In this document: positions 4,987 through 41,777 of the stretch, piece by piece | Layout of the letters: every line of letters begins with the position of its first letter | How positions within the stretch are numbered: position 1 is the stretch's first letter | IMG/VR virus record: IMGVR_UViG_3300046739_000063 | Coordinates: 1-42,256 of that record | DNA from: a virus | Taxonomy: Duplodnaviria > Caudoviricetes | Strand: one strand, 5' to 3' | DNA length: 42,256 bases | Made by a program: the position numbers and the translations under genes | Notes under the pieces: model-generated | Databases searched by the model: none | The model's input: the letters and a program-made list of their open reading frames with translations, nothing else | Told to the model about the DNA's origin: nothing

Positions 4987-5821
4987 ATGTGGGCTTGTTC
5001 GGGTTGGTTAATGCAGGAGAGCCATTGTGACTTCCTGCGATTGCGTTTTGACCCACCAAAGTCACCCCGCAAACGTCCGGGCAATGAGAGCAATGGCCAA
5101 GGTAGGTAGAATTGTTTGAGAGCGAAACCGCTCTGACAGACTCCAAATCTTTAACCGCCGTCAGTTTGATTATGCCGCCGACTACCAGGGAATGATTCTT
5201 TGGGACGCGCAAGGGATTATCAATGGTCGGGTGCAATCGGAATAACTCGTCCTGAACCGCAGCCATCCGTGCGCCGTCTGGATTAGCCCGAATGAAATCA
5301 CAGGAAACAATCCGCGCAATGCTGTCACCCCCAGAGAGTTTAAATCGGTAGAACTCACGCTTTCGATAGGCAAGCTCGGCGGCCGTGTCCAGTGCGGAAA
5401 TGGAAGTGTTCAGAACCGTTCGGCAGGCAACGAGCCTTTTAACCTGCGCGTCACTTAGCCGCATCCAGTGTTTTGTAATTACAACTGGTCGGGCGAAATC
5501 TGCGAGCCATTCGATTGTATCAACGGTTTCCTCCCAGTCGTGGCAAGGATCGCCCATTGTTCCGACCCGGAAGAAACCATGCGGAGAATTGGCAACCGCT
5601 CTCTCAATTGCCCTGGCTTGCGTCTTTGAGTGAACCTTGCGCGTGACTGCGACGGTAAAATCTATGCCACGAAATTTGGCTATGTTAGCCGCGTAGCATC
5701 CATCGTAACAGCCAGCAGCGGGCCGCGCTGCCATGCCAGCGGTGCAACCTTTGACCGTATCAACATCAAAAACACCTTTGGAATTAAGCGTTGCGGTCAA
5801 GACGTTTGAGAATTGGCGCAT
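4946..5821 (-). CDS. Radical SAM protein, SPL-like, with atypical CX11CX3C motif
   Basis: VKGC-X11-CYDGCYA, RVGTMGDP, VITK, SISALD; C-terminal CSHCPDVC. Confidence 0.75.
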   Translation of the reverse strand: MRQFSNVLTATLNSKGVFDVDTVKGCTAGMAARPAAGCYDGCYAANIAKFRGIDFTVAVTRKVHSKTQARAIERAVANSPHGFFRVGTMGDPCHDWEETVDTIEWLADFARPVVITKHWMRLSDAQVKRLVACRTVLNTSISALDTAAELAYRKREFYRFKLSGGDSIARIVSCDFIRANPDGARMAAVQDELFRLHPTIDNPLRVPKNHSLVVGGIIKLTAVKDLESVRAVSLSNNSTYLGHCSHCPDVCGVTLVGQNAIAGSHNGSPALTNPNKPTYENRNARQKTLAL

Positions 5822-14276: not shown

Positions 14277-14500
14277 AACAGGCCACCCGTTTAACGCCCG
14301 TTGCAGCACCGCCACAACCCGGCCCGCCCCTGACCGAGAGTTGTTCCAACTGCAAATGTTTCATGGCTGATCAGACCTGCCATCGCGGCCCGCCCTGCAC
14401 AGATTTCCAGTTCTATCGTTCGCTCGGGTTCTGGCCGACTGTCACTGAATCGCAATGGTGCGCTGAATGGAAACCCCGTAAACCCGTAAATGGAGTATGA
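14273..14500 (+). CDS. Small 4-Cys metal-binding protein
   Basis: CSNC...CHRGPP...WP...WCAEW. Confidence 0.7.
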   Translation: MKQATRLTPVAAPPQPGPPLTESCSNCKCFMADQTCHRGPPCTDFQFYRSLGFWPTVTESQWCAEWKPRKPVNGV

Positions 14501-14907
14501 CAAACCTCCTGATCCTCACCCTGCAACTGATCCACACAAACATATTCCCCATCGGCTGCAAGTATGGTGATGGCGGAACACCCGCGGCTTATTGCTGGAA
14601 TGTGGAATTGACCTACACCATACCAACCAATCTCACGCCCTCGGTCTGGGTTGTGGAATCCACCGACACACCTGAAGGTGTCACAATCATTGAAGAGCCA
14701 CCCTGGGGCACGCTCTACATTGGCCAGCCGTGGCAGGAGATAAACACATCAACGAACGTGACCTTCTGGCAATATCCAAACCTTGACCTTGGCCATTTCA
14801 CGAACACATGGACAGGCACGGTCCAAACCAATCGCATCCGGTTCCCGGTGCCGGATGGGTATGCCGATGGCAAGGGCTATTATTACCGGATGAAACGAGT
14901 TAGGTGA
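14497..14907 (+). CDS. TN-rich hypothetical protein ending YYYRMKRVR
   Basis: Coupled ORF; hydrophobic start; VVESTD...W...YYR pattern. Confidence 0.65.
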   Translation: MTNLLILTLQLIHTNIFPIGCKYGDGGTPAAYCWNVELTYTIPTNLTPSVWVVESTDTPEGVTIIEEPPWGTLYIGQPWQEINTSTNVTFWQYPNLDLGHFTNTWTGTVQTNRIRFPVPDGYADGKGYYYRMKRVR

Positions 14908-21502: not shown

Positions 21503-22012
21503 ATGAAAAAGAATCTGTTCACAGTTCTCGGGTTGCTTGGGGCTGCCACGGGTGTAGCATACCTGCTGGCGTTCCTGTCATCCTCGATGCACGCTCAACC
21601 CGCCCCCGGAGGCGGGATCATCGGCACACCATCCACTCTCATTCTGAGTGGGTCTGGAAACTGGACCAACCGCATTGCGGCGTCCACCTCTGTTACCAAC
21701 ACGGTGAGATACGACACTGGAAACGCCCTAAATGTCTATGTGCAATGGGCGCTACAGGCCACCACGGTAGGGCCGACCAATTGCACATTGGAAATCCGGC
21801 GCAGCGTGGACGGCGTATATGCAAACGCTGAGCTCTGTTGCCTGCTCACGAACACGACCAGCGCAACGGCACTGACCACGACATACGTTTACACGAACCT
21901 AAACGGGAATGTGACGGTGGGGGGCGCCAAGTATCTGTTCTTCAACATCATGAGCAACGCCACGGCTGGCGGGTTCCTGACGAACTATTCCGTTACAGTC
22001 AATTCCAAATAA
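21503..22012 (+). CDS. Signal-peptide-bearing beta-rich protein in the capsid-decoration position
   Basis: MKK plus hydrophobic stretch plus MHA-Q; directly after the capsid gene; 6 TN dipeptides. Confidence 0.75.
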   Translation: MKKNLFTVLGLLGAATGVAYLLAFLSSSMHAQPAPGGGIIGTPSTLILSGSGNWTNRIAASTSVTNTVRYDTGNALNVYVQWALQATTVGPTNCTLEIRRSVDGVYANAELCCLLTNTTSATALTTTYVYTNLNGNVTVGGAKYLFFNIMSNATAGGFLTNYSVTVNSK

Positions 22013-25674: not shown

Positions 25675-27681
25675 ATGCCTGGACCTGGACCAAAAGGCGA
25701 ACTCGATTGGAACGTGGCCTCTTGCACAAGGAACTACGTTCTGCGCGCGGCGTTCACCAACCCGAGCCTGGTTCATTTAACATGGGATATTCCGGCAGGG
25801 ATTGATTACTACTGGTTTTACCAGACAAGCGATCTAGCTGCTGGATTCGGTAATCCGGTTAAAGTGTTAAGCAGTGACCCCGTTGACCCTGCCGGCCCAT
25901 TCGCATTTAAGGATGTGCAGGTAGGAAACCAAAACACACCCTTCCCAATTTATTGGCGCGTGGTCGGCGTGCTCGGGAACGGCCTGAGAGTTCCTTACAA
26001 CGACTTGGCAATATTAGATTTCACAGATGCGAGACTGACCGGGGCTATAACGTCTCCCGCAAACAATGCAACCGTCGCCGGAACGATCCACATGGCAGCC
26101 GAGGTGTTCGATGGCGTAGCGCTTCAATCCGCGAGATTCATCATTTCCAACTTGGGCGGATATATTTATCTGCCGCTCATTCCGGTGACGGGCACCTCTG
26201 CAATCATAACCCAGGATTATGATTCAACAGCGCTTCCGATTTCCAATGGCAACCAACTGATGTTTGCCCAGGTGTTCAACCAGGCTGGGGCATTCAAATA
26301 CAGTGCTGGTATATCTATCAAAGTGGATAACGCCGTCACAGATCCTGGCAACCTTCTCAATCTCAAGACGGCAGGCCATAGCCCGCTGACTGGATTCTGC
26401 AAACTGGTAGACGTAAAGATTGACAGCCAGGGTCGAGTGAATGTGGTAGGGGTGTTCTCGGGAACGGTTAGCTTCTATGGAACATCAATTACATCTTTTG
26501 CAGACGGGTTGAACATCGTAGTTGCTCAGTTGGCATCCGATCTTCAATCAGCCAACTGGGTCCATCATTATGGCGGGAAATACGCTTGTCTAGCATCCTC
26601 GTTGTCCGTTGATTCCTCGGATAACATCATCGTCACCGGGCAGAACACCGGCACGACTAATTTCGGAGGTTCTGATATCGTGAGCGGTGGTGGGGTTGAT
26701 AATCCAGACCCATTCCTTGTGAAGTTCAATAGCTCCGGGACGCATGTTTGGTCAAAGGGATTCGGTGGTTCGCACGGAAACTATGCCTCTGCGATATGGA
26801 TGGACTCATCCGACAACATATACGTCGCGGGCAACTTCAACTTCCAAGCTGACTTCGGAGGTGGAGTAAGGACAGGACCACCGACGCTTTCAATGTTTAT
26901 TGCTAAGTTCCTCGGCACGGATGGTTCCTGGGTATGGGACAGGTTCAACGGTGTTGGTTCATCATATAATTCCGCGACAGAAATAACAGGAGACGCATCT
27001 AACCTGTTCGTCTCTGGATTTACCACAGGGAATGTGGACCTCGGCAACGGCCTGGTTACTCCCTCTGGTAACGAGATGGGATTCGCAGCCAGCTACAAGC
27101 AACTGGACGGTTCTTATATATGGGCTAGCGTTCACCAAGCACCGGGATCGAACATAGAGGCTACTTCAATCTGCCTGGATGGATCAAATGTTTGGGTTGC
27201 CGGAACATGCACTCAGACGTTCACCCTAAACGGAATCACGTTCACAGCAACCCTGTCCGGGGCGATGTATCTGGTGAAGCTCAATGGAACCACTGGAATA
27301 GCTTCAGCCGGAATATCGCACGGAGGCTCAAGTTCAATCGGAGGGTATGTTAAAGCGTTCTGTGTTCGCGCCGACTCCAACGGCAATTTAGTGCTTTGCG
27401 GAGGCGTAACCGGAGAAGTGGACTTCGGAGATGGAAACGTAACGGCCGGAACGGGAGGTCTATTCATAGTCAAATACTCCCCCACATTGCTGGTGATGTG
27501 GTATGACCGGACGTCTGGGACCGGGGGAGTTAGCGCCCTCCTGCAACGCCTCGCTATAAATGCGACTCGCCAGATCTTTGCGGCCGGAGGACACACAGGC
27601 GATCTCACCATCGGGCCGACAACCATTTCCTCAGCCAGCAACCAAACTAACGATGGGGCGATCATGAAATTTACACCGTGA
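25675..27681 (+). CDS. Ig-like plus SBBP beta-propeller repeat protein (putative adhesin/receptor binder)
   Basis: ITSPANNATVAGTI (Big domain); repeated VDSSDNIIVTG, DSSDNIYVAG, FLVKFNSSGTHVWSK. Confidence 0.8.
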   Translation: MPGPGPKGELDWNVASCTRNYVLRAAFTNPSLVHLTWDIPAGIDYYWFYQTSDLAAGFGNPVKVLSSDPVDPAGPFAFKDVQVGNQNTPFPIYWRVVGVLGNGLRVPYNDLAILDFTDARLTGAITSPANNATVAGTIHMAAEVFDGVALQSARFIISNLGGYIYLPLIPVTGTSAIITQDYDSTALPISNGNQLMFAQVFNQAGAFKYSAGISIKVDNAVTDPGNLLNLKTAGHSPLTGFCKLVDVKIDSQGRVNVVGVFSGTVSFYGTSITSFADGLNIVVAQLASDLQSANWVHHYGGKYACLASSLSVDSSDNIIVTGQNTGTTNFGGSDIVSGGGVDNPDPFLVKFNSSGTHVWSKGFGGSHGNYASAIWMDSSDNIYVAGNFNFQADFGGGVRTGPPTLSMFIAKFLGTDGSWVWDRFNGVGSSYNSATEITGDASNLFVSGFTTGNVDLGNGLVTPSGNEMGFAASYKQLDGSYIWASVHQAPGSNIEATSICLDGSNVWVAGTCTQTFTLNGITFTATLSGAMYLVKLNGTTGIASAGISHGGSSSIGGYVKAFCVRADSNGNLVLCGGVTGEVDFGDGNVTAGTGGLFIVKYSPTLLVMWYDRTSGTGGVSALLQRLAINATRQIFAAGGHTGDLTIGPTTISSASNQTNDGAIMKFTP

Positions 27682-27701: not shown

Positions 27702-28679
27702 ATGGCAACAATCTACGCAGGACCAGGCAAGGTTTACATGGTGACACCTGGCGTGTCACTTCAGGCCGAGGGCGTCGAGGGCAAGATAGTTCTGAGCCTG
27801 AACGAGACAACGGCAGACTATGCCGCAGGGCAATGGGGTCACATCGGGGAACAGCCAACGGACCAGATCGTTGACCTGACATTCAAGCCGTTTGACCAAT
27901 GGATTCTGTTGCCTGCCCTGTTCCCGGCATATCTGGGTTGCGATACCTCGGCCATTGCAGGAGGCGCCGCGGCCGCGCTCAAGGTCGGCACAAGGCCACA
28001 TGCTGCCACGGTAGCAACAGGAACCCATTGCAAGGTCTGGACCTGGGACGGGCGGCTGTATGACATCGTGCGCGCGGCGATTGTGGGCATTCCAAGCCTT
28101 CACCTTGGCACGGCTCGGGCCTTGTTCGGGGATGCTAAGATTGTTGGATTGCCTGACCTGTCCGTTGCCATGGGATCATCTGGCTATCTCATAACGGCCA
28201 ATGCCATTACTGAGAGCGGTGGAACTGACCCTGACATCTCATTCTCCATGGCCAGCTTCGTGCGCGAGGCATGGACCGGAGCATGGGGCGCTGTAACAGG
28301 GTTCACCGCTATTCAGGCTGAGGAGGAATGGACGATTGAGACAACTGCCCAGTTCTCCCCGCTCAAGGTCCAGGGCAGAACGCTGTCCATGCAGTTCGAC
28401 AGCATCAAGTTTATGGCCAAATGCCGGCCGTTCGGCCCGACACATACTCAGATCGTGGGTGCGGTGGGCGCCCATTTGCAGGGTCAACGGCTTGGGGCGC
28501 ATGATCTGGTTCTGACGTCCAGCGCCAGTGCCAAGACCATCACCCTGTATAACTCTGAGATCAAAGGGGCTGGATTCGACTTTGGCGGAACTGTCCTGGG
28601 CACGGGCGAGATCGGGTTTGTGCAGGAAATGCAATTCAGCGCCGGAGCACCAACCAAATTGATCCAGTTCAGCGCATAG
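27702..28679 (+). CDS. Putative major tail tube protein
   Basis: MATIYAGPGKVY start, beta-rich, 325 aa, position in the tail module. Confidence 0.6.
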   Translation: MATIYAGPGKVYMVTPGVSLQAEGVEGKIVLSLNETTADYAAGQWGHIGEQPTDQIVDLTFKPFDQWILLPALFPAYLGCDTSAIAGGAAAALKVGTRPHAATVATGTHCKVWTWDGRLYDIVRAAIVGIPSLHLGTARALFGDAKIVGLPDLSVAMGSSGYLITANAITESGGTDPDISFSMASFVREAWTGAWGAVTGFTAIQAEEEWTIETTAQFSPLKVQGRTLSMQFDSIKFMAKCRPFGPTHTQIVGAVGAHLQGQRLGAHDLVLTSSASAKTITLYNSEIKGAGFDFGGTVLGTGEIGFVQEMQFSAGAPTKLIQFSA

Positions 28680-28687
28680 AGCCGTGA

Positions 28688-29125
28688 ATGAAGATAAACT
28701 ACAAGCTGGTATCGGGTGGGGGTTATCTGCCCTTGGCGGACGATACCTCGCTATCCACTGTGACGCCTCCGGCCAACAAGGGCCAGGCGATCAACATGGA
28801 TTTCAAGCCATCGTTCAAGCCGGCTGTGCAGCAAGATATGCTATTCCGCAGCCAAGCCGCGTTCAGGGTGAACCGGGGCAACATCGTTCTGAGCATACCA
28901 TTAACGGTAACGGTGGAGTACTCGACTCTTGCGAGCGCGCTGGCCTCTATCCGGGCCTTCGCTGGGCTGCTGGATCAAGTAATGCATCTGCAAGTCATTC
29001 AGGACACCGAGACACAGTACTACCCAAACGCGCTCTTGCAGGCTTACGACGCCGAGCCTTCGGGAGCATCCATAGTCCACAGGTTTCTTTTCGCCAGCGA
29101 TAACGTGACTGACACCGCCGTCTAA
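28688..29125 (+). CDS. Putative tail protein (distal-tail-like)
   Basis: Beta-rich 145 aa; TAATG coupling. Confidence 0.5.
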   Translation: MKINYKLVSGGGYLPLADDTSLSTVTPPANKGQAINMDFKPSFKPAVQQDMLFRSQAAFRVNRGNIVLSIPLTVTVEYSTLASALASIRAFAGLLDQVMHLQVIQDTETQYYPNALLQAYDAEPSGASIVHRFLFASDNVTDTAV

Positions 29126-29763
29126 TGCCAACCCCACTTGCTGCAACGCGAATAAGGTTTTCGAGCGATCAGGTGTTGAATCGCGACAACGCCCTCACGC
29201 TCACGGACAAGATCACCGGATTGCAAATCCAGATGTGGCAGTCCGAAGATTCTCAGATCGAGACGAGCCTGTTCTCGAACGGCACCTTCATTGACAGTTA
29301 CGCGAACATTACCAGCATAACACTGCAATTCAAAGACCCCGGAAACCTGCTCGGTTCGCCTCTATTCAGCAAGACGATCACGATTGCCGGCGGTGCTCCT
29401 GCTTACGATGCAACCTGCACGCTGACCGATTGGAATGCTGGCACAAAACAAACCTTTGCCTTCGCGCTTGCTGCGGCTGACACAAACATTGCGCTAGATG
29501 GACGGCCTTCCAGAACCCTGCAGCTTGATATGTGGGTGACAAGCACGACATCTCAACGGATCATGGTCTGCTCTGGAATCCTAACCTTAGTTGATAGCGG
29601 CTATGGGGACATCGGCTCCATCGTGATCGTGGCGCCAGGCGCACGTATGAAGTCCAATCTCCTGCAGGTGATCAATTCTGATAACTCTCTTTACTACAAT
29701 GTGCGGCTCAGGAACGTGAGCGGTGTTCCAACGCTGACAACTGATGGGGCAGGTGAAGCATGA
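29125..29763 (+). CDS. Putative baseplate/fibre-attachment protein (BppU-like)
   Basis: ITLQFKD...FAFALAAADTN...GILTL pattern; precedes the fibre genes. Confidence 0.55.
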   Translation: MPTPLAATRIRFSSDQVLNRDNALTLTDKITGLQIQMWQSEDSQIETSLFSNGTFIDSYANITSITLQFKDPGNLLGSPLFSKTITIAGGAPAYDATCTLTDWNAGTKQTFAFALAAADTNIALDGRPSRTLQLDMWVTSTTSQRIMVCSGILTLVDSGYGDIGSIVIVAPGARMKSNLLQVINSDNSLYYNVRLRNVSGVPTLTTDGAGEA

Positions 29764-31154
29764 GAAAGCAAACGATACTCAACGCCCTGCTGCTGCTATT
29801 CGTGGCAGCGTGCATCGTCATCAAGGTTAGGGGCGGAACACCTATCGCGGGCAGTCCTCATGTGGGTGTTATCACCGACACCAACGGAAACCTTTTTGAC
29901 TCGGCCAGCAACCTATTCGCATCTAATCTGGCATTCCTTCAGCCGTTCGAGTTCCCTTTTGCCAGCAACATTGTTCATGGTGGCATCATACCCCCGGCGA
30001 GCGCCGGAAACCTCACGAACCATGTGGACGTTCAGGCCACCGCCCTGGCAACCGGTCAGGTGCTCCAATGGAATGGCGCGTTCTGGACCAACCTGCTCTT
30101 CCCGATCACCGCAGGCATCACCAACGGCTTTATACCAGCCGTCAACCTCAATGGTCCGGTATGGTCAACGAACGGGTTCAATACAACTAACCTGAACGGG
30201 TTCGCGGCCTACGATTCCACGGCGACAAACTTCTGGCGGCTGCGCGCCAACCCGAACATGGCCACGAATGTCAACTGGATGGGGCCAACCAATGTCGGGA
30301 CAGGGCTATTGTATGGCACCAATGAACTGGCCGGATCTGCAACCAATGTTCTGTTGCGCCAGATAGCCAATGGCACAGCTAATCAGGTGCTCTCTATGGT
30401 GGGCGGGATACCGACCTGGGCGAGCGCCGGCGCGTTGGGTGCAGGCCCGTTCACGAACCTCACGATCTGGAGCCATCCGACTTACTTCATGCGAACCAAC
30501 GGCCAGGTTCCCCCTGTCCTGATTGTGAGCAACACCGCCACAGCCTCCACGCTGCTCACCATTGACGGCACAGGCGATCTTTATGCAAGGAACGTGTATG
30601 CTACCCAGTTGAATGTCGGCGCGAACCTCCTGGGCACTCTGGGAGACATCTACGCCACAAACCATATCGTTGCTTACACAACCGGGATTGGGTTCGTCGG
30701 GGATGGATCCGGCCTGACCAATCTCGGCAATGGGGCATTCAACGGTCAGGTGTTGACCAACCATTTCACCGGGGCAAGCCTGACCAATACAGTCCATGCT
30801 GGCAGCAACATATTCTCATTGATCTCCTTCGCGCGCAGGAACATCACGACGATAGCCAACGGTTTCAATGCCGACATCAATCTAGGAACAAACGTATTCG
30901 TCAAGTTTAGTGGCGCTTCAGCAGCATTCACAAACTGCGGGTTTGTCGCAGGTTCAAGTGGAGAGTTCCATATTCTCGTGAATATGAGCACGTTCGACAT
31001 GGATCTGGCTAACGAAAGCGGTGTGGAATCCACCGCGGCCAACCGGATCACATGCCTGACCGGGGCCGACAAGAAGGTAACTGGTAACTCCGCTGTGATG
31101 ATCATTTACGACGATGCGACCTCGCGCTGGATACCTCTCACGTTCACACAATGA
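29760..31154 (+). CDS. Tail-fibre-like protein with N-terminal signal peptide/anchor
   Basis: GQVLQWNGAFWTN, GTANQVLSMVGGIPTW, FVGDGSGLTNL fibre motifs; MRK plus hydrophobic N-terminus. Confidence 0.8.
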   Translation: MRKQTILNALLLLFVAACIVIKVRGGTPIAGSPHVGVITDTNGNLFDSASNLFASNLAFLQPFEFPFASNIVHGGIIPPASAGNLTNHVDVQATALATGQVLQWNGAFWTNLLFPITAGITNGFIPAVNLNGPVWSTNGFNTTNLNGFAAYDSTATNFWRLRANPNMATNVNWMGPTNVGTGLLYGTNELAGSATNVLLRQIANGTANQVLSMVGGIPTWASAGALGAGPFTNLTIWSHPTYFMRTNGQVPPVLIVSNTATASTLLTIDGTGDLYARNVYATQLNVGANLLGTLGDIYATNHIVAYTTGIGFVGDGSGLTNLGNGAFNGQVLTNHFTGASLTNTVHAGSNIFSLISFARRNITTIANGFNADINLGTNVFVKFSGASAAFTNCGFVAGSSGEFHILVNMSTFDMDLANESGVESTAANRITCLTGADKKVTGNSAVMIIYDDATSRWIPLTFTQ

Positions 31155-34100
31155 AAAGATTACTCGCTTTCCTATGTTGCCTCCTGGTTCTGCGCGCGCA
31201 GGCCGTCAATGTGCTGGTCAATGTTCGAGATGTGGTGAGCGGCACTGTGAACCATCGCCCGGTGACTATCACCCTGACCAAGCCAGCCGGCCCAGTCGTC
31301 CTGGGTTCATGGGTGATCGCTGGAGACTCAGCAACGCAGCTCACGGACACCAACGGCATCGCGGTGTTTACCAATATCCTGACCGTGGGCCAGTATCGGC
31401 TGGACATAGCCGGCAATCCATCTCGCAGCTTCCCATTCTCGGTATCGGCGACCACGCCAACGAATGGAACTTACAATGTCATTCAACTCCTGGGCACGAA
31501 CGTGGCGCCTGAGATGTTTTATGATACAGGACAGATTGATGCGTTGTTGTCGGGGATAACCGGAGGCGCTGCAACGAACGTCACCGTCCAGCCGGCTGAT
31601 GGATCAATCACAGTGTCAACCAACTCATCGAGCAATTGGTCTTTGGCCATGGCAGCCGCGCAGAGAAACTTCTGGTTGAGCAATAGTCATAACTTCATCC
31701 TGTCGGATACGGCGGGAATCCTCTATGGCAACGGGGCAGGGTTATCGAATGTTCCACCTATAGGCAGCGTGACGAACGTATTCGTTCACCCTCTTGATGT
31801 TACGGTCAAGGTTGTGACGAACACACCATCTGATTTCTCTGTGGCCACGACCAATATATCCCCCGTATATCGCCTTTTCACCAATGGCGTGTTGGTCGGC
31901 CCGAAGGGCGTCATCAGCACGGCGGGGACGGTGACGGCGGGCATTCAAGAGGCAATCAACGACATGCCTCTGGCCGCGAACTCCACGCCAGCCAGCAAGT
32001 TCACCGTGCCGGGTGGTGGCCGGATCGAACTGCAACCGGGGAAATACGTTTGCACTGGGCAGATACTCATTCCCAGCTACACCAACCGCCCGTTTAACCT
32101 GAAGATTGAAGGTGTCGGATTGCCGCAGGTGATCTACAACGGACCAGGTGGGTCTAACTTCGTCATCACCACGGAATACAGTGGTGGCACTCTTTACAAC
32201 GGGCTTCGACTGGAGGTGGAAGGCATCTCATGGCTGATGATTCCAAACACGACAAACATGCTCTTCAAAATCGGAGCGTGGCAGGATGTTCGATTCCGAA
32301 ACAACACCTTTGCTTGGAACATGGGCTTGACTAACGAGCAGGCTGGTACGAGTGGGGGATACACCTACAACTACGAACTAAAGCAGCCGGTCCAGCCGGG
32401 GGTTGTGGGAGTATGGTTGGAGCCATCCTCGAGCGTATGGTCGGAGTTCACTGGAAACACGTTCTTTGGTTTGGCTTGCGGCATTGCCCATAGTGGAAAT
32501 CGAGGAATCATCAGCGGTAACAATTTCGGAAATGTGGGGTCATTCTTCACTAATTCGGCTTACACCTATACTACACTATGGACGAACGCGGATTATGCAG
32601 GGAGTCTGGACGTATCAAGTTTAATGGGGTTGGGTCCGGCTATAGTCTATCAGACGTTCGATTCATCAGACCTGGTTGTGATCAACAACAGCTTCCTGAA
32701 ATGCGGGGCAGGGGTAATAAACTACGGAGGCTCTATCACTGTGCAAAATGACTTTTACTTCGGTGGCAATTACAAGATAGTAAACTATTCAACAGGAGGG
32801 CACTGTGCCGTCAACCATTCTCAAGGCGGATACCAAGAAGCGGACCACGGAGATGCGATCATACACGATAGTGGTCTAACCCCTTGGTTCGTATTCAGTC
32901 CACAAACAAGCACTACGACAACCGCACCATTCACCATAGTTTCCAATAGCGTACTTGGTCTGACCGTCTGGGGAAACCTAAACGCCTCGAACAATCTAGC
33001 CGTTAATGGCACCGTCACCATCAAAGGCGGATCTCCCAGCGTAAACAGGGTGCTAACATCCGACGCGACTGGAATAGCAAGCTGGCAAGACCCAGTAACG
33101 GGGACGGGGGGCACTGTGTCCAACTTCAACGCGCAAGCCCTGGTGTTCACAAACAGCTTCTCGGTGAGTAACGCGAACTTCGCCGCAGGGTCCAAGCTCG
33201 ACACGAACGGAAACATAAGCGCGAGCGGCGTCCTGAACGTGGGCGGTAAGAGCTATCTGACCAACTCACAGAGCACGATCAGCAACTCAGCGAGTATATT
33301 CGCAGGAAACCTGTTCGAGTTCTGGGATCCGAGCTTTCAAGACTGGATGAAGATTATTCCAGGCACGACGACACTTACCATAACCAGCCCAGATGGCCCC
33401 GTCACACTCAGCGCCGGTCAATTCAACGGGTCCGGTGCTGGACTGAATCTTAACACGGTGCCTGTTGGGGCTTTATCCATCAACGCCAACAACGCCTATT
33501 TCTTTACGAATAATGTGGCCGTATCTAATGCGCTGAACAATGTCGGGGTGGCGATTGGAACCAATGGCACAGTACAAGCCAGCGGCGCCGTGAGTGCGTC
33601 AACCTTCAACGGCTCTGGCGCTGGCCTCAACGCCGATACAATCAAATTCACCAGCATGTTGCAGGACGTATTCGGCCTTCTCACGAACAACTTCGGTGTG
33701 AGCAACGCGACGTATGTGGCCGGGGTGCAGCTTGGGACCAACGGCAACGTGAGCGCGAGCGGGACGGTGAGTGCGCCAACGGTGTCCTTGAGTGGTGCAG
33801 GCCCCGGCAACATCACCGGCGCGGGTATCAGCGTTACCAACTCCGTGAGCACAACGACGGCGATTGAGGCCGTGCTTGGCACTAACCATACCATAGCGGT
33901 CTTTAGTCCTGGCGCTGGCCTGGCTGTGGGCACTAATGATGTCAACACACCTCCGGGCATGGTCGAGACAACGAACGGGTTCAATGCGCTGCCGGGGGCG
34001 GTGTTCTCGGGCAATGCTTCGGGCATAACCAACTTTCCACTAATGTCACCGAGCGGGTTTGCTTTGCCGTGGAGGCCCGGTGCGCGTTGGTTGATTCAGG

Positions 34101-34747
34101 AGGATATTGATAATGGAGTGGTTGCCACTATCCCGCCGAACTTAAACCCCGCAAATTCAGGCGGGCAGGTCGCTGGAATATCAGACATAGACAGCAACCA
34201 CATCGGTTTGATCAGCTTAAATTGTATAACCAACGCTGGATCATATTCTGAAGTGTCCGGTAGGGCGGATTCAGTGATCTTCTCAACCGCCGATTGGTAT
34301 TTTGAATGTGCCTTCCGGTTTACCAACGTGGATTCGCCAACCTTGGCGCTGAGTAATGGTTGGTTCAAGGTCGGGTTTGTCGAGGGCCGGATTGACATTG
34401 CCTCGCAGAGTGCTGGGGCATGGGCGCAACTTCTAAACACGACGAATAACTGGGCTTTCGTCACGGCGCAGGCAAGCACGCGCACGACTAACATCACCAC
34501 GACGGCAGGTTGGACGGCCAACTGGCAAACGATTGGGATTTATTCGCCCTACCCAAATACGAGTGCTACTCTCTACATCAACGGAGTCAACACGGTCACT
34601 CTTTCATCGAACCTGCCACAAGGCAAGACTCAACCAAGCACGCCGAGGATAGGTGCAGGAGCAAGTGCGGCGGGTCTTGGATTCTCAACATTCGGGGTGA
34701 ACGTGGATTATATGTGGGTGGGTATATCTCCGCACAGTTGGCCATGA
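31151..34747 (+). CDS. Tail fibre/spike with beta-helix depolymerase-like and C-terminal lectin-like domains, plus signal peptide
   Basis: MKRLLAFLCCLLVLRAQA; GIQEAIND...GGGRIELQPGKY; VLTSDATGIASWQ; repeated GNGAGL/FNGSGAGL. Confidence 0.82.
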   Translation: MKRLLAFLCCLLVLRAQAVNVLVNVRDVVSGTVNHRPVTITLTKPAGPVVLGSWVIAGDSATQLTDTNGIAVFTNILTVGQYRLDIAGNPSRSFPFSVSATTPTNGTYNVIQLLGTNVAPEMFYDTGQIDALLSGITGGAATNVTVQPADGSITVSTNSSSNWSLAMAAAQRNFWLSNSHNFILSDTAGILYGNGAGLSNVPPIGSVTNVFVHPLDVTVKVVTNTPSDFSVATTNISPVYRLFTNGVLVGPKGVISTAGTVTAGIQEAINDMPLAANSTPASKFTVPGGGRIELQPGKYVCTGQILIPSYTNRPFNLKIEGVGLPQVIYNGPGGSNFVITTEYSGGTLYNGLRLEVEGISWLMIPNTTNMLFKIGAWQDVRFRNNTFAWNMGLTNEQAGTSGGYTYNYELKQPVQPGVVGVWLEPSSSVWSEFTGNTFFGLACGIAHSGNRGIISGNNFGNVGSFFTNSAYTYTTLWTNADYAGSLDVSSLMGLGPAIVYQTFDSSDLVVINNSFLKCGAGVINYGGSITVQNDFYFGGNYKIVNYSTGGHCAVNHSQGGYQEADHGDAIIHDSGLTPWFVFSPQTSTTTTAPFTIVSNSVLGLTVWGNLNASNNLAVNGTVTIKGGSPSVNRVLTSDATGIASWQDPVTGTGGTVSNFNAQALVFTNSFSVSNANFAAGSKLDTNGNISASGVLNVGGKSYLTNSQSTISNSASIFAGNLFEFWDPSFQDWMKIIPGTTTLTITSPDGPVTLSAGQFNGSGAGLNLNTVPVGALSINANNAYFFTNNVAVSNALNNVGVAIGTNGTVQASGAVSASTFNGSGAGLNADTIKFTSMLQDVFGLLTNNFGVSNATYVAGVQLGTNGNVSASGTVSAPTVSLSGAGPGNITGAGISVTNSVSTTTAIEAVLGTNHTIAVFSPGAGLAVGTNDVNTPPGMVETTNGFNALPGAVFSGNASGITNFPLMSPSGFALPWRPGARWLIQEDIDNGVVATIPPNLNPANSGGQVAGISDIDSNHIGLISLNCITNAGSYSEVSGRADSVIFSTADWYFECAFRFTNVDSPTLALSNGWFKVGFVEGRIDIASQSAGAWAQLLNTTNNWAFVTAQASTRTTNITTTAGWTANWQTIGIYSPYPNTSATLYINGVNTVTLSSNLPQGKTQPSTPRIGAGASAAGLGFSTFGVNVDYMWVGISPHSWP

Positions 34748-36042
34748 GGATCATCGCTCTATTGTTAATCAGTCTGTCTGCACACGCGGCGTCCACCAGC
34801 TACTTCATCGCCAACGCTGGCAACGACGCGAATAACGGCACGACGACTGGCACGCCGTGGAAATCGTTTGCCCATGTAACTAATGGATCGGTGAATTTCG
34901 TTTCGGGCGACACGGTATTTCTGAATCGTGGCGACACATGGGCGGAGCAGTTCACAATGCCGACGAATGGGTTGATTGTGGATGCCTACGGTTCTGGAAC
35001 TGCACCAACGATTGATGGCAACCCCGGTGCAAAGATACGCTTTGGTGTTCTGTGTAGTTTGGTGAGCAACACAGTGACGAGGAATCTCATTATCAAAAAC
35101 ATCGGCGGTTACGCGGGACCGAATGATACGGGGGCATGTTGGCAGACCGATGGCTATTCAAATCGAGTTGAGAACTGCACGATGGATCATCATTTGAGCG
35201 ACGATGGAATAGCGGCCAATGATGGCGGGACCGGCGCGGTGTCGAATTGCATCATAATCAATATGTTCGATCAGGCTTTCACAATGCACTCAAGCGCAGC
35301 AGCCACGACTCTCATTGTGCAAAGCTGCCTCATCAGTAATTGCAACGAGGCATTCACGCACTCAGGGGGAAATCTGTTTCAGACGGTCAATGACTGCGTG
35401 ATTCTGGATAATGTGCTTGGGGATAATGTGCTTGGTGCGGCAAACTGCTACTCGGTGTTCAACCGTTGCTGGTTCAAGGGAAAGGTTAGTTCGTCGCAAT
35501 ATAAGTTCTCGGAGACTATCTCGAACACGGTCTTTAATTATTGTCTTTTTGACGCCTCTTTGAACACTAGCCAGTCCTCTCCGCAAATCACGGTTAGTAG
35601 CGGTCCTCTGGTGATGAACAACTGCGTTCTCTACGGTGGCCCGAATCAGGTTGGGGCGATCACGATTAACGCTGGCGCTACGTTGGCAATGACCAACTGC
35701 ATAATCTTCGATTGGTGGCGGATGGCGTTCATAACCGATCCGGGGACTCTCACGTTGGATCACTGCATCACAAACTCAATCGTGACCGGAACGCAGACGG
35801 TAGTTGTCAATCAGGTCAGCACTTCGGACCCGAAGTTCGCCAGCGCGTCCAGCAAGAACTTTCATATTCTGCCCACATCTCCCGCGCTCAAGACTGGACT
35901 AAACCTTGGCCTCACGCTCGACCTTGAAGATGTGGCCGTGGGCAATCCTCCTAACGTGGGAGTATATGAAACGATCCTGCCTGCGTTTACGTGGACGGGA
36001 AATATCAATGTCAGCGGTAACGTAACATTCAAAGGACAATGA
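34744..36042 (+). CDS. Secreted right-handed beta-helix (pectate-lyase-like) protein (432 aa)
   Basis: MRIIALLLISLSAHA; YFIANAGNDANNG..PWKS; GDTVFLNRGDTW; NC ladder; C-terminal DPKF..NFHI..SPA..VGVYE. Confidence 0.85.
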   Translation: MRIIALLLISLSAHAASTSYFIANAGNDANNGTTTGTPWKSFAHVTNGSVNFVSGDTVFLNRGDTWAEQFTMPTNGLIVDAYGSGTAPTIDGNPGAKIRFGVLCSLVSNTVTRNLIIKNIGGYAGPNDTGACWQTDGYSNRVENCTMDHHLSDDGIAANDGGTGAVSNCIIINMFDQAFTMHSSAAATTLIVQSCLISNCNEAFTHSGGNLFQTVNDCVILDNVLGDNVLGAANCYSVFNRCWFKGKVSSSQYKFSETISNTVFNYCLFDASLNTSQSSPQITVSSGPLVMNNCVLYGGPNQVGAITINAGATLAMTNCIIFDWWRMAFITDPGTLTLDHCITNSIVTGTQTVVVNQVSTSDPKFASASSKNFHILPTSPALKTGLNLGLTLDLEDVAVGNPPNVGVYETILPAFTWTGNINVSGNVTFKGQ

Positions 36043-36482
36043 CCATGACCAAACTCCTCACCCTCCTGTTGCTCTGCGTCGGCCTGACTCAAGCTCATGC
36101 CACGTTCTGTATCACTAACCTAACCCTCACTTACGTTGGCCCGGTTGGTGGCAAAATCTGTGTCGTGGGCCAGCCAGCCTGTACCAACGGGATGCTCTCG
36201 GTATCGTATGGGACCGCGTGTAACGACAATCCCATGAACAGCTTTGCCGTGTTCACGGTGGACATCTCAGGGATCAGCGGGGACACATGCCATTATACCG
36301 GGACTGTCGCCACCTTGAACATCGGTTGCGCCAACGAGATTCCGGGTCACAAGGACATTACTATGTTCGGCAGTTGTGAGGCCACGTTTTATGTCATCGC
36401 AACGTGCGATCATCCGACGCACAAATGCAGCGTGGATGTGTGCCCGTTGCAGAGCGATTGTAATTGCACTGGTGGTTACTAA
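36039..36482 (+). CDS. Secreted Cys-rich protein
   Basis: Signal peptide ending AHA; 12 Cys in the mature part. Confidence 0.75.
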   Translation: MTMTKLLTLLLLCVGLTQAHATFCITNLTLTYVGPVGGKICVVGQPACTNGMLSVSYGTACNDNPMNSFAVFTVDISGISGDTCHYTGTVATLNIGCANEIPGHKDITMFGSCEATFYVIATCDHPTHKCSVDVCPLQSDCNCTGGY

Positions 36483-36626
36483 ATGAAACCCCGCCCCAAC
36501 CTGCTTTGCATCTGCGCGATGATTGTCGCGCTGGTGGCGGTTCTGGTGGTTCCTTATTATGCGTCCGGTTGTTGCTTCTCGGTGTTCAGGACCAGGCCAT
36601 CTGTGATGTTGTTTGAGGTCAAATGA
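36483..36626 (+). CDS. 47-aa membrane/lipoprotein-like ORF MKPRPNLLCICAMIVALVAVLVVPYYASGCC...
   Basis: Exactly fills the gap; ATGA-coupled to the next gene. Confidence 0.5.
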   Translation: MKPRPNLLCICAMIVALVAVLVVPYYASGCCFSVFRTRPSVMLFEVK

Positions 36627-37087
36627 GAATTATACTCGCCATACTGCTCTGCGCCTCAACCGTTCTGGCTGCCGATAATGTCACGCTCAAACAGGTGCCG
36701 ACCAAGCCGTTGCCTCCCAGGTTTTCCTGCTGCACAAATATCATTATCTCGGGCCTGCTCAATCCTCCGGTGCAATACGTGTTCGCGTATCCAGCCAACT
36801 GTCAGTATTACACGAATGGAGTCAACTGGCGGGTGGCGCCGTGTTCCCTATCTGCTGCCTGCACGAATCTCAGCGCAAACTCGATCACTGTCAGCAACGG
36901 CCCGGTCGGTGGAATCGTTGGAATCGTAACGATTCAGTGCATCACCGGGGCCATCTACCCGACGAACTTGGTCTTGAATGCGGGCTGCACCGGGGCGACA
37001 TTCTATTGGGGTTTCGGCTGCCTCTCAGGCTGCTCGAATTGCGCCCCGTTTGTGTGCCGAATAAACGACATATCAGCAGGAAACTAA
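36623..37087 (+). CDS. Secreted Cys-rich protein
   Basis: Signal peptide ending VLA; 11 Cys in the mature part. Confidence 0.75.
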   Translation: MRIILAILLCASTVLAADNVTLKQVPTKPLPPRFSCCTNIIISGLLNPPVQYVFAYPANCQYYTNGVNWRVAPCSLSAACTNLSANSITVSNGPVGGIVGIVTIQCITGAIYPTNLVLNAGCTGATFYWGFGCLSGCSNCAPFVCRINDISAGN

Positions 37088-37091
37088 AATC

Positions 37092-37343
37092 ATGTCCGAA
37101 GAAAAGAAGCCTAGTTTTACGTTCAGCCGGACGATCTCGCTGGATGGCGTCTCAATCATCGTCGCGTGCGTCCTTTCCTCGCTATGGTTCGGCTCGGTGA
37201 AAGAGCAGTTGCGCGAGCATTCAGAGCACATCGCCAGGCAGGATCAAACCTTGCTCACGATGAGCCAGACCGTGCAGTTGCTCTCCGAGAACGTCAAGGT
37301 GCTGACAACCCTCGTCAATGAGCGGACCCTGCATAAGCCTTGA
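37092..37343 (+). CDS. Single-TM plus coiled-coil protein (holin/antiholin-like)
   Basis: One TM then heptad repeats; lysis-module position. Confidence 0.6.
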   Translation: MSEEKKPSFTFSRTISLDGVSIIVACVLSSLWFGSVKEQLREHSEHIARQDQTLLTMSQTVQLLSENVKVLTTLVNERTLHKP

Positions 37344-37454
37344 ACACTAGCGCCTCATGGCCTCGGCCTCATCGCCCCTGTGGGGGGATATGCAGCGAAC
37401 CGCGGCCCGTGGCCTAATGCCACAAGTGAGGCGTGATTTGAAACCAAAAACATT

Positions 37455-37607
37455 ATGAGCACAATCGCACTTGCACTATTCTTCATCCTGTTCGCCGTAT
37501 CGAACCTGCTCGAAACCAAACTACCGGGCTGGACCCTTGGCGTGGCGGCTATTGGCGTGGTTGTATGCCTCATCATCGGCGGTGGGTGGCGCAAAAAAAC
37601 ACCGTGA
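37455..37607 (+). CDS. 50-aa two-TM protein MSTIALALFF...GWRKKTP
   Basis: Two hydrophobic helices and a basic tail; GTGA-coupled to the next gene. Confidence 0.65.
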   Translation: MSTIALALFFILFAVSNLLETKLPGWTLGVAAIGVVVCLIIGGGWRKKTP

Positions 37608-37816
37608 AAGAGTTCCTCAAACACATAGAACCCCGCATCCTGTTCGGGTTCCTGATTCTCGTCGTGCTTGCCGGATTGGCTATCATGATCGCGTTCGGCA
37701 CCGTGAAGCAGGAGTCCAGCTACGGCCTTGAGATCGTGCTTGGGAGTCTGAGCACGCTGGCCGGGGCATTTGCTCAATGGGCGTTCAGCACGCCGAAGGA
37801 CAAGCCGAATGCTTAA
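37604..37816 (+). CDS. Two-TM holin-like protein (70 aa)
   Basis: GTG start at 37604; two TMs; charged tail. Confidence 0.65.
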   Translation: MKEFLKHIEPRILFGFLILVVLAGLAIMIAFGTVKQESSYGLEIVLGSLSTLAGAFAQWAFSTPKDKPNA

Positions 37817-38141
37817 ATTCGTTTCAGGCTACCTGGCAACAGTCCCGTCCGCTTTTCTGGAAGGGCTGCTCTATGTCCTGATTGCACTATTCGGATTCTG
37901 GCAAACCTTGTTCGGCTCGGATGAGGCGGCGAAGTTCTTTAGCCCGACACTGCTCTGGTGGGTCAAGGCGTTCGTCGGCAGTGGTTCCGCTGTATTTATC
38001 GCTATCAAGATGTTTCGATCCACCAGCTTTGCGGATCATCAGAAACAAAAGACCGGGGACAGCCAAATCTGGAAGAAAGAACCCTTGACGCCATCGGCCA
38101 ATCCGGCTAAACCAGAAACAAGCGAAACCAAAACACCATGA
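37809..38141 (+). CDS. Two-TM holin-like protein (110 aa)
   Basis: Two hydrophobic segments, hydrophilic C-tail. Confidence 0.65.
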   Translation: MLKFVSGYLATVPSAFLEGLLYVLIALFGFWQTLFGSDEAAKFFSPTLLWWVKAFVGSGSAVFIAIKMFRSTSFADHQKQKTGDSQIWKKEPLTPSANPAKPETSETKTP

Positions 38142-38476
38142 AAAGATACCTCTCAGTAGTCCTCCTCGGCCTCGCGCTAGTCGGCTGCAAGACAACTGGC
38201 GGCTGGCAAACCGTCTCGGGCAAGTTTCTGTCCACAACCGCCGTTGCCGTGGACAGTTCCATGCAGGCATACGCCACCTGGGCCGTGATGAACCATCTCG
38301 GCACAAACGATCTGGCCAAGGTCCGCACGGTCTATGCGGATTACCAGATTACGATGATGGTAGCTACCAACGCCTATGTCCTGGCGGTTAAAGCTGGGGA
38401 TCTATCTCTTTTCACCGGGCCGAGCAACAATCTGTTTAACGCAAAGTCAGCCGTCACGTCTGTAACCGCACACTAA
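38138..38476 (+). CDS. Lipoprotein
   Basis: MKRYLSVVLLGLALVG-C lipobox. Confidence 0.8.
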   Translation: MKRYLSVVLLGLALVGCKTTGGWQTVSGKFLSTTAVAVDSSMQAYATWAVMNHLGTNDLAKVRTVYADYQITMMVATNAYVLAVKAGDLSLFTGPSNNLFNAKSAVTSVTAH

Positions 38477-38478
38477 TT

Positions 38479-38670
38479 ATGAGCGCCGCCGTCATTGCCC
38501 AACTCCTCATCGCTTTCGGACCTCCCGCGATTCAAATGATCCAGCAGCTTGTCGCGCTCTGGAACAAACCCGCGTTGACGCCTGATGAAGTCATGGCGTT
38601 TTGCGCCTCGTCACAAAAGAGCTTCGACGATTACATGAAGCAGGCGCAGTCCAAAATTGGAACTCCGTGA
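38479..38670 (+). CDS. Small amphipathic protein (63 aa)
   Basis: Directly follows the lipoprotein gene. Confidence 0.7.
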   Translation: MSAAVIAQLLIAFGPPAIQMIQQLVALWNKPALTPDEVMAFCASSQKSFDDYMKQAQSKIGTP

Positions 38671-39282: not shown

Positions 39283-39497
39283 ACCCGGCTGACTACCAAT
39301 CCATCTCCGAATCCCTGACCGCCCTTGAACTGACCGTGACGCACGCTCGCCATGCCCATGTCGCGTGCAGGTTCGATCTGGAACTGTCGCAGCTCAAACA
39401 GGCGTGGAGCCAGGCAGCGGACCTGCACCGCAACATTACTCAGGCCATGCTTGCGCCGGTCACGCACGGCTCTCAACCGAGGCCGGATACGCTGTGA
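39279..39497 (+). CDS. Hypothetical protein (72 aa)
   Basis: ATGA/GTGA coupling on both sides. Confidence 0.6.
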   Translation: MNPADYQSISESLTALELTVTHARHAHVACRFDLELSQLKQAWSQAADLHRNITQAMLAPVTHGSQPRPDTL

Positions 39498-40300
39498 AGC
39501 AGCTTGTCAATTACTCTGGCGGGTTGTGCTCGTTCTGGGCGGGGAAAAGGATGGTGGACGAACACGGTCCAGAGAATGTGGTGTTAATATTTGCTGATAC
39601 GCTGATTGAGAGCAAAGGCTTGTATGTGCGGAACGAGGAAGTCAGCAAATATCTCGGCATCCCAATCATCCGCATATCCAAAGAGCTGACACCTTGGCAA
39701 CTGTTCCGGCGTGAGGGGTTGATTGGAAATGATCATTTCCCGATCTGTTCAACGAAGCTAAAGAGGGAACCGCTCAACGAATGGATGGAGTCTCATTATG
39801 AGATGGACGAGAATCAGCACAATTATCTTTACGAACCAGCAACCGTAATCCTCGGGTTTGATTATTCCGAGTATCATCGGGTCGTGGACTTCCATAACCA
39901 GCATCCTAACTGGAGAGTCAGGGCACCAATGACAGAGGGGCCGCTGTGGGACAAGTGCAAGATGGAATCCGAGGCTCGTAAATTGGGATTCACAATCTCC
40001 GAGGCTTACGAGCAAGGATACCCGCACGACAACTGCGGCAAGCGATGCGTGAAAGCTGGCATCTCACATTGGGTCCATCTGCACAACACTGACCTGCCTG
40101 CTTTCATGGAATGGGAGAACGAGGAGGTTGCCACGCAAAAAGATTTCAGGCTGCGTGGAATTAGCAACTGGCAATTCACGATTCTCAAAGACCGTCGTGG
40201 AGGCGAGACCAAACCATTATTGTTGCGTGATCTTCGGATCAGAATAGAATCTGGCGAACAGTTCCCGAAGTATGCCTGGGGCGGCTGCGGCTGCCACTAA
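39494..40300 (+). CDS. PAPS-reductase-like adenine nucleotide alpha-hydrolase (268 aa)
   Basis: PP-loop-like NYSGGLCS, IFADT, CSTKLKREP, HDNCGKRCVKAG, C-terminal GGCGC; GTG start at 39494. Confidence 0.8.
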   Translation: MKQLVNYSGGLCSFWAGKRMVDEHGPENVVLIFADTLIESKGLYVRNEEVSKYLGIPIIRISKELTPWQLFRREGLIGNDHFPICSTKLKREPLNEWMESHYEMDENQHNYLYEPATVILGFDYSEYHRVVDFHNQHPNWRVRAPMTEGPLWDKCKMESEARKLGFTISEAYEQGYPHDNCGKRCVKAGISHWVHLHNTDLPAFMEWENEEVATQKDFRLRGISNWQFTILKDRRGGETKPLLLRDLRIRIESGEQFPKYAWGGCGCH

Positions 40301-40572: not shown

Positions 40573-40730
40573 AGGCCTGCGACAAAGCCAGTCTCCTCAC
40601 ATCCATAGCAGCGGCGTCATACTGTTACCGCTCCAGCCGTCGCAAACACGACTGGAGCCTTTATTCATGGGCCAAAAGACGATTATGCGAATTGCGAAAA
40701 CAGTTGCGGGACTTGGAGCGTTGCTCCTGA
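40569..40730 (+). CDS. Possible 53-aa basic ORF
   Basis: GTGA-coupled open frame; weak support. Confidence 0.3.
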   Translation: MKACDKASLLTSIAAASYCYRSSRRKHDWSLYSWAKRRLCELRKQLRDLERCS

Positions 40731-41161
40731 CAGCGTGGCAGGTCCATGGCCAGGCAGCGGCCGCGGTTATCACTGGCTTTGCCTACTCGCCCACGACAGG
40801 CATTTACACCAACGAGACGGGGACGCATGAGGTTCCCGGGCCTGCGATAGTATGGACGAATGGTGTTGTTCCAGGGGCTTACTTCAGAACAAATCTTGCG
40901 GCACTCACTCCTCCACCGCCGCCCGAATCAGCCCCGACCAGCCTCAAGGTCTGGCGTGTCAAATGCCCTTACTGCTCCACAGCATTCAACACAGGCGCCG
41001 TGTTTGACCGGGTGAGTGGTGGAACATCCAACCCAGACGGCAGCACGACTGAGCATCACTCCATGAGATGCAACTGCTCCAATCTGGATTGCGCCAAGCA
41101 GATCAACTGGATGAGGGATGTGATCGTTCCAAAGGTCGTTGCGGTGCCGATCAACCCCTGA
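40685..41161 (+). CDS. Signal-peptide protein with C-terminal Zn-ribbon-like cysteines
   Basis: MRIAK plus hydrophobic stretch plus VHG-Q; CPYC...CNCSNLDC; start may be 40667. Confidence 0.65.
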   Translation: MRIAKTVAGLGALLLTAWQVHGQAAAAVITGFAYSPTTGIYTNETGTHEVPGPAIVWTNGVVPGAYFRTNLAALTPPPPPESAPTSLKVWRVKCPYCSTAFNTGAVFDRVSGGTSNPDGSTTEHHSMRCNCSNLDCAKQINWMRDVIVPKVVAVPINP

Positions 41162-41777
41162 CCCTGCAAACCCACATTCCGCGCAGGCAATGCGGGATCT
41201 GCCAGTTCTCAAGGATCAGTTCATGTTTCCAGCCCAGCTCGTCCAAGGTGCCTTCAAGTGATGCCTTGGACGGATGATCCACGACCTCGACCATGCCTGA
41301 GCAGTTGGTGTTGAGCCGGCCAGTTTCGATTGACATACCCGGCTTCTCCCAGAGCATAGAATCGAGGATGACCGTCTCGGCGTTGGACTGGTTCACGATC
41401 CGTTCAAGGTGCGCCCAGCCGTTGTGCAGGTGATAGATCAGGCCAAGGCAGGAGACGACTTCGTGGGGGCCATCCGGTGTGAACTCGCGAATGTCTGCCG
41501 TTATCCAAGAGATTCGTTGTCCTTCTGGCAATTTGCTCAATTCCCAGATGGCAAAATCATAGAAACACTCCCTCGGCTCAACCGCCGTAACATGGGCCGC
41601 TCCATACGCTGAATAGACCAGTGGAAAGTGCCCCGCGTTACTGCCCAAGTCCAGAACCCGTTTACCAGCGAACAGGCTGGACACTTTCATCAACGCCTCG
41701 GTCATTGGCCCAAGCCGATTGTTCTCGTCCTGGCCGATGCCTTTGAAACAGATCAGGGATTGTTTGGGTGGGGTCAT
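41151..41777 (-). CDS. Class I SAM-dependent methyltransferase
   Basis: GKRVLDLGSNAG, VTAVE, VVSCLGLIYHL. Confidence 0.85.
   Translation of the reverse strand: MTPPKQSLICFKGIGQDENNRLGPMTEALMKVSSLFAGKRVLDLGSNAGHFPLVYSAYGAAHVTAVEPRECFYDFAIWELSKLPEGQRISWITADIREFTPDGPHEVVSCLGLIYHLHNGWAHLERIVNQSNAETVILDSMLWEKPGMSIETGRLNTNCSGMVEVVDHPSKASLEGTLDELGWKHELILENWQIPHCLRGMWVCRVRG

Follow-up and report, generated by a model that had tools for sequence, protein, structure and literature searches.

Sec-type leaders on fibre-position and post-capsid proteins of an uncultured tailed phage suggest that outer virion parts may mature outside the cytoplasm

In an uncultured tailed phage and its relatives, proteins encoded at the fibre position and after the capsid gene begin with Sec-type leaders, and the other core structural proteins do not; the outer parts of this particle are therefore likely to be made and modified outside the cytoplasm and would join it only at lysis. 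We consider it probable that these proteins are exported, mature in the periplasm and are attached at lysis. The window analysed, 42,256 nucleotides (nt), is the whole of IMG/VR record IMGVR_UViG_3300046739_000063 with a 127-nt terminal repeat, and is therefore a complete circular genome. Pfam and PHROGs scans identified a terminase, a Mu-like portal, a capsid gene and a head morphogenesis gene and recognised no sheath gene; the phage is a siphovirus-type tailed double-stranded DNA (dsDNA) phage. Genes are named here by their first position, and the leader-bearing candidates are listed below with, for some, the count of Thr residues directly preceding Asn (Thr-Asn).

29760..31154, plus strand: leader-bearing fibre-like protein, 464 amino acids (aa); Thr-Asn 19 against 5.8 expected
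31151..34747, plus strand: leader-bearing tail or neck fibre, 1198 aa; leader 1-18, anchor about 19-140, variable body
34744..36042, plus strand: leader-bearing predicted right-handed beta-helix, 432 aa, 13 Cys; Atlas model with a predicted template modelling score (pTM) of 0.83
36039..36482, plus strand: leader-bearing small protein, 147 aa, 12 Cys in the mature part; no family and no relative in the fetched loci
36623..37087, plus strand: leader-bearing small protein, 154 aa, 11 Cys in the mature part; Thr-Asn 4 against 1.0; no family and no relative in the fetched loci
21503..22012, plus strand: post-capsid gene with a Sec leader and a jelly-roll domain; candidate exported capsid decoration or cement protein

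A preliminary description of this DNA had read 29760, 31151, 34744, 36039 and 36623 as a tail fibre or spike module with signal peptides. These open reading frames (ORFs) were found to be real at the starts it gave, each with one or more basic residues, a hydrophobic core and a small-residue site, and the four signal-peptidase-like sites it had listed (AQA in 31151, AHA in 34744, AHA in 36039 and VLA in 36623) were present. The predicted site in 29760 follows V-R-G, with a lipobox-like V-A-A-C as the alternative. Because ATGA overlaps join them to the preceding stop, the starts of 29760, 31151, 34744 and 36039 are fixed; GAGG lies upstream of the 36623 start, and a longer TTG start at 34510 was rejected for its overlap of more than 200 nt with 31151. 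Leaders were called by a heuristic for the N-terminal region, hydrophobic core and cleavage region. When tried on Escherichia coli proteins (labels assigned from product names), it flagged 10 of the 12 exported ones, none of the 26 cytoplasmic ones and 1 of the 4 in the membrane class. In the late region of the window (9.4-41.2 kb) it flagged 8 of 37 plus-strand genes: the five above, 21503, 38138 and 40667. The leader of the post-capsid gene, overlooked by the preliminary description, is the same signal as that of the fibre genes. No membrane anchor was visible at the C-termini of the leader-bearing proteins. None of the five proteins matched a significant family in Pfam, PHROGs or NCBIfam. 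The fibre motifs quoted earlier were indeed present, two in 29760 (residues 99 and 314) and one in 31151 (residue 634), but they are not phage-specific, since many matches obtained through the third motif were signal-peptide proteins not phage-like in appearance.

Whether homologues keep the leader, a point raised in the preliminary description, was examined for 31151 in a search of 1.84 billion representatives, which gave 213 matches; 65 with the N-terminal domain as best stretch were chosen from the 150 listed. A hydrophobic leader was present in 58 of these 65, and the other seven comprised three truncated proteins, two whose visible leaders fell slightly short of the threshold and two (P0140 and P0163) that begin at the domain. 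Among the 47 of 50 aligned sequences with enough upstream sequence, the residue at -1 was A, G or S in 42 and that at -3 was A, V, L, C or S in 40. This conserved site of predicted cleavage lies just ahead of the anchor domain's first strand, at the point that corresponds to Met1 of lambda Stf. For 29760, a leader was seen by eye in 15 of 16 homologues.

Related loci were collected with the 27702 gene as marker (197 homologues, 69 aligned), and the alignment led to 17 viral, 8 genome and 54 metagenome loci, many of them redundant. In 36 of 41 related-locus rows the first gene of at least 250 aa after the homologue of 28688 was leader-bearing; the remaining five were tape-measure or hub genes. 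A check of starts in 14 genes placed the leader 25-85 residues from the called start in 13, some having a nearer start codon and others a long basic n-region. Fifteen pooled core families of the relatives, from which two capsid families were left out, had a leader in 0 of 360 proteins, compared with 42 of 78 appendage-family proteins under a strict test. Conserved leaders, a conserved cleavage site and leaderless core structural families thus give strong support to the export proposed earlier for the module proteins, and the fibre-position and post-capsid proteins are very likely, on this sequence pattern, to be exported through Sec.

The conserved part of 31151 resembles virion anchors. A predicted model of residues 19-150 had a predicted local distance difference test score (pLDDT) of 78, and the three best of 48,161 solved chains were 8keg_a (the neck fibre of cyanophage A-1(L); Z 10.6, root-mean-square deviation (rmsd) 5.6, 113 aligned), 9e7m_Ta (confirmed as lambda Stf 1-94; Z 9.6, rmsd 2.7, 89 aligned) and 7kjk (the XM1 neck protein; Z 8.9). 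These virion fibre and collar anchors ranked above pilin and transthyretin domains, the next matches being a Bacillus surface protein (Z 8.4), a Bxb1 tail-tip chain (8.3) and a pilin-type domain (8.2). BFVD gave 23 matches at E 0.001, those with names being mostly tail fibres. The anchor had no significant match in a PDB sequence search and none in Pfam or PHROGs, and tblastn with the anchor and middle region found no match in 50,697 phage records. The lambda Stf, A-1(L) (8keg), XM1 (7kjk) and DEV (9cod) fibres share the N-terminal prealbumin-like anchor and variable body predicted for 31151. Lambda Stf, however, begins at the domain without a leader, whereas 31151 has a cleavable-type leader ahead of it, and no match between the two was found at sequence level. 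The mature form of 31151 would thus have a fibre anchor at its very start, in register with Met1 of Stf. With its variable body and conserved virion-type anchor, and encoded in the tail operon beside tube and distal-tail genes (labels given by position), 31151 is likely, judging from the model, to be a virion component. Because the fold is common, the match is support and not proof.

A broader anchor profile matched in 9 of 401 host-class genomes and near-full in four, of which two lie in prophages, a third is next to a connector gene of a phage and the fourth sits on a contig of 1.7 kb. The weak matches in the other five (about 40-60 positions, mostly in very large proteins; G170 was inspected) were discounted as noise from a generic fold or from composition. 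In one genome (G050, contig C55; L137:8371-9970) the leader-plus-anchor fibre gene adjoins a phage head-tail connector gene, the pair standing alone amid host genes; this two-gene relic hints at attachment to the neck.

The post-capsid protein 21503 was modelled at pLDDT 67 with jelly-roll matches at Z 8.3-8.6. Like the cement protein of BPP-1 (3j4u chain H, Z 8.3), it is a predicted small jelly-roll protein encoded beside the capsid gene; unlike it, 21503 has a leader. By our reading, the capsid gene is followed by a comparable gene in 31 of 42 rows; among the remaining 11, seven come after a protease or scaffold gene instead, two pass directly to the connector and two carry another small gene. 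A word search found only 21503 itself. The family is divergent, and T128-N129 are its only columns conserved at 90% or more, in relatives recognised by position and by an alignment whose program can favour lining up Thr-Asn pairs. In some relatives a soluble domain of about 60-110 aa precedes the leader and jelly-roll (L007:6333, L008:6482, L013:6086, L014:6713, L056:6526, L061:7008, L022:7705, L051:7667 and L052:5563); such a gene may give rise to two products, one cytoplasmic and tethered to the membrane, the other exported. As for 29760, its C-terminal domain had a weak tblastn match (E 7e-4) to a leaderless annotated phage tail fibre, UOF81314, and the shared tip domain weakly indicates that 29760 may be a fibre. 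Both 29760 and 21503 are plausible virion parts.

The reading of all five genes as a fibre or spike module held for 31151, through its anchor fold, and more weakly for 29760; it did not extend to 34744, which is like bacterial secreted beta-helix proteins, or to 36039 and 36623, which have no recognised relatives. In Atlas, 34744 aligned from its first residues with bacterial beta-helix clusters only (template modelling score 0.74-0.82). A match to PelN was weak and far under the cut-off, and no virion anchor or PHROG match was found. On its model, 34744 is likely to bind or cut polysaccharide, and together with 36039 and 36623 it may supply add-on tips or soluble proteins released at lysis. 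Paired cysteines were dropped as a general argument, the mature count being even in just 3 of 5 genes.

These three proteins bring in another explanation, in which the exported proteins never join the virion and serve the infected or lysogenic cell as fibre-derived adhesins, decoys or depolymerases. Secreted fibre-like proteins are known in cells: the MAT fibres of Bdellovibrio, as described in PMC10769870, have a signal peptide, a conserved beta-rich N-terminal domain of about 130 aa and a mosaic phage-like fibre, the same layout as 31151, with which they were compared by layout alone. The closeness of 34744 to bacterial clusters, the occurrence of relatives as prophages in host contigs and the G050 relic amid host genes also favour it. 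MATs, however, are bacterial surface proteins, whereas the 31151 family sits in the tail operon of a whole phage genome and its anchor is nearly confined to phage contexts among the 401 host-class genomes; no window protein matched the S74 chaperone domain in the Pfam scan. Against it also stand the translational coupling of the genes within the tail operon, the regular filling of the fibre slot (the 36 of 41 rows above), the retention of a virion-type anchor while the body varies, the lack of a visible surface anchor on the exported proteins and, in several relatives, leader-bearing genes that stand alone between distal-tail-like and tape-measure genes. We regard exclusion from the virion as unlikely for the set as a whole, and as likely true for some of 34744, 36039 and 36623.

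The exported proteins also share a sequence motif that the preliminary description had overlooked. Thr before Asn was enriched 3.09-fold in 100 leader-bearing phage proteins. Appendage families had 1104 Thr-Asn against 342 expected and core families 245 against 313; in the window, the six exported candidates had 66 against 26.8 (31151 alone, 31 against 12), and 15 core genes 25 against 21.5. The motif is common to exported proteins of the host: in about 740 kb of DNA from three metagenome-assembled genomes (MAGs), with gene starts called by us, leader-bearing proteins had 173 against 82 (68 proteins), cytoplasmic proteins 169 against 164 (243) and membrane or unclear proteins 277 against 144 (114). 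Controls gave 10 against 20.9 for exported E. coli proteins and 302 against 277 for 57 proteins matching through the mid-fibre motif alone. The pattern tracks lineage and compartment and not fold, which suggests that Thr-Asn may be a motif for modification in the host envelope; that the modification is glycosylation is a guess. The N-x-S/T glycosylation sequon was rejected as the motif, there being no S/T excess at +2 of Asn. PMT-like genes, present in 87 of 101 host-order genomes, were uninformative because 6 of 14 controls also matched. A MAG titled Acidobacteriota that carries a prophage of the family (G005; L025, L105, L106 and L124) had 29 against 9 in six leader-bearing proteins, reflecting either mis-binning or a wider range of the motif.

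The Thr-Asn pattern bears on a further alternative, that the leaders are uncleaved or slowly cleaved inner-membrane tethers, with assembly on the cytoplasmic face and Thr-Asn as a structural turn preference. Several relatives' capsid proteins have hydrophobic N-termini without a Thr-Asn excess (18 against 16 in the larger leader-like family), and in some post-capsid genes a soluble domain lies ahead of the hydrophobic stretch. The basic n-regions, however, predict an N-in, C-out orientation by the established positive-inside rule; the peptidase-type site is conserved; and the excess goes with export in host proteins that have no relation to these, and neither comparable beta-rich proteins from other sources nor the leaderless fibre UOF81314 (3 against 3.0) show it. 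We therefore hold tethering to be very unlikely for the leader-bearing set. One or two hydrophobic stretches begin the major capsid proteins at L008:4857, L009:3888, L014:5068, L018:5541, L020:5758, L021:5397, L027:5614 and L056:5007, possibly as a membrane tether removed during head maturation.

In the proposed sequence of export and late attachment, the fibre-position and post-capsid proteins would pass through Sec and lose their leaders; they would fold in the periplasm, with disulfides forming in the Cys-rich members; a host enzyme would probably modify them at Thr-Asn sites; and the finished particle would bind them once lysis opens the inner membrane. T4 and lambda add fibres and decoration proteins last, so that such parts could be supplied from another compartment. 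Filamentous phages M13 and fd have virion proteins with signal peptides, pIII and pVIII, including the receptor-binding one, which acquire periplasmic disulfides and are added outside the cytoplasm. In inoviruses, assembly takes place at the membrane as the particle is extruded and uses coat proteins anchored there. The parts described here, by contrast, have the look of soluble proteins, and their phage is a tailed dsDNA one that encodes a terminase, a Mu-like portal and a capsid protein; M13 pIII is, by analogy, a functional precedent.

Among tailed phages, Cellulophaga phage phi18:3 (NC_021794) encodes three consecutive proteins with clear leaders, gp085-gp087, which carry an 'experimental MS/MS proteomics' note in RefSeq as structural or tail proteins, their virion status being that of the RefSeq annotation alone; the nine other proteins so noted that were examined had no leaders. 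It differs from the present phage in its Bacteroidota host and its family, and a Thr-Asn excess is seen at most in gp086 (11 against 5.8). For the Verrucomicrobia siphovirus P8625, its authors (PMC4642752) report a signal peptide in 0 of 52 proteins, so the leader trait, on that account, is not phylum-wide. The literature searched, with subscription journals and bioRxiv supplements outside its reach, gave no report of tailed-phage fibres that are exported, nor of a Thr-Asn motif.

A bolder version is a two-compartment particle, with the bare head and tail made in the cytoplasm and the fibres and capsid coat protein secreted, given sugars by a host Thr-Asn system not yet described, and added on at lysis. 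We offer it tentatively, as possible but somewhat short of an even chance. Were it true, released particles would wear a coat of sugars made by the host, much as the enveloped viruses of eukaryotes do, and a protein-modification motif new for bacteria would have come to light through phage proteins. The current understanding places tailed-phage assembly in the cytoplasm. With host-recognition parts exported, a second compartment would take part, these parts would acquire disulfides and modifications of the host envelope, and the failure of some fibres on cytoplasmic expression would be accounted for. The Thr-Asn excess that phage proteins share with exported host proteins suggests that a widespread group of bacteria has a protein modification yet to be characterised, and might be of use in assigning hosts to uncultured phages.

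Several observations weigh against export and late attachment. The 31151 family is known here from genes and predicted models alone, its anchor has a common prealbumin-like fold to which pilin domains score Z 8.2-8.4, about 1-2 below the fibre matches, and its profile aligned by hhalign with the single lambda Stf sequence at a probability of 1%. The homologues P0140 and P0163 start at the anchor domain with no leader. A leader-like start alone can mislead, because some relatives' major capsid proteins trip the heuristic: it flagged 5 of 13 and 1 of 5 members (6 of 18) of the two excluded capsid families. Locus counts are not independent, since many loci are near-duplicates. For 21503, the match to the BPP-1 cement protein tied with those to carbohydrate-binding modules; for 34744, the nearest clusters are bacterial and not viral and Thr-Asn stands at 4 against 4.5; and the mature Cys count is odd in 34744, 36623 and 21503. 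The window also holds leaderless receptor-binding candidates, 25675 and 12691. In the host sample a per-protein rank test on proteins with an expectation of at least 1 (28 versus 23) was not significant (p 0.17). No modifying enzyme for Thr-Asn was identified, and an STT3-family transferase was found in 0 of 5 prophage-bearing MAGs and over the cut-off in 5 of 151 host-order genomes, these genomes being incomplete.

The neighbouring genes that frame the candidates are the following.

27702..28679, plus strand: conserved leaderless gene, probable tail tube by position, no strong family match; leader in 0 of 58 homologues
28688..29125, plus strand: small conserved leaderless gene, probable distal tail protein from size and position; leader in 0 of 45
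29125..29763, plus strand: leaderless 212-aa protein; Thr-Asn 1 against 1.2; no family, no relative in the fetched loci
37092..38670, plus strand: lysis-like block of 37092 (weak holin match), two membrane proteins and lipoprotein 38138, spanin-like by position

The 28688 protein had no significant PDB or PHROG match, including in a PDB search with its profile. The label 'baseplate-like' given earlier to 29125 found no support in Pfam, PHROGs, NCBIfam or PDB sequence searches; a cytoplasmic adaptor for an exported fibre is a possible role. In the lysis-like block, 37092 matched the holin family phrog_4237 at E 0.0075, and 38138 has a lipobox. Neither an endolysin nor an integrase was recognised among the approximately 60 ORFs of the window (1-42256) in Pfam, PHROGs and NCBIfam scans. 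The missing endolysin would fit passage of whole particles across the inner membrane before or without classical lysis, with maturation in the periplasm and collection of the exported parts there. The holin-like and spanin-like genes speak against this, an unrecognised lysin is the simpler reading and no translocation machinery is evident, which makes such passage extremely improbable; attachment at lysis is retained as the preferred reading.

The host is probably, though not certainly, one of the Verrucomicrobiota, because four of the eight genome records with related loci are titled Verrucomicrobia or Pedosphaera; of the other four titles, two read 'uncultured bacterium' and two Acidobacteriota. 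Elsewhere in the window, tape-measure-like and hub-like genes (9402-13989) precede the terminase, and the early region of the circular genome separates them from the tube and fibre genes. The leaderless 432-aa protein at 12691-13989 follows the hub-like gene and has 23 Cys; Cys clusters also begin the genes in the same slot in several relatives. At 25675-27681, inserted before the tube-like gene, lies a leaderless 668-aa protein with repeats and an Ig-like domain (weak Big_7 match), a candidate cytoplasm-made appendage that has no relative in the fetched loci. Two small proteins outside the tail operon (40667-41161 and 14497-14907) have hydrophobic N-termini and some Thr-Asn excess. Promoter and terminator scans of the window gave chance-level results only, and its repeats were set aside as internal fibre repeats or chance. 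A DNA methyltransferase-like gene with its partner (3556-5821), a PAPS-reductase-like gene (39365-40300) and a methyltransferase gene (41151-41777) may form a DNA modification set.

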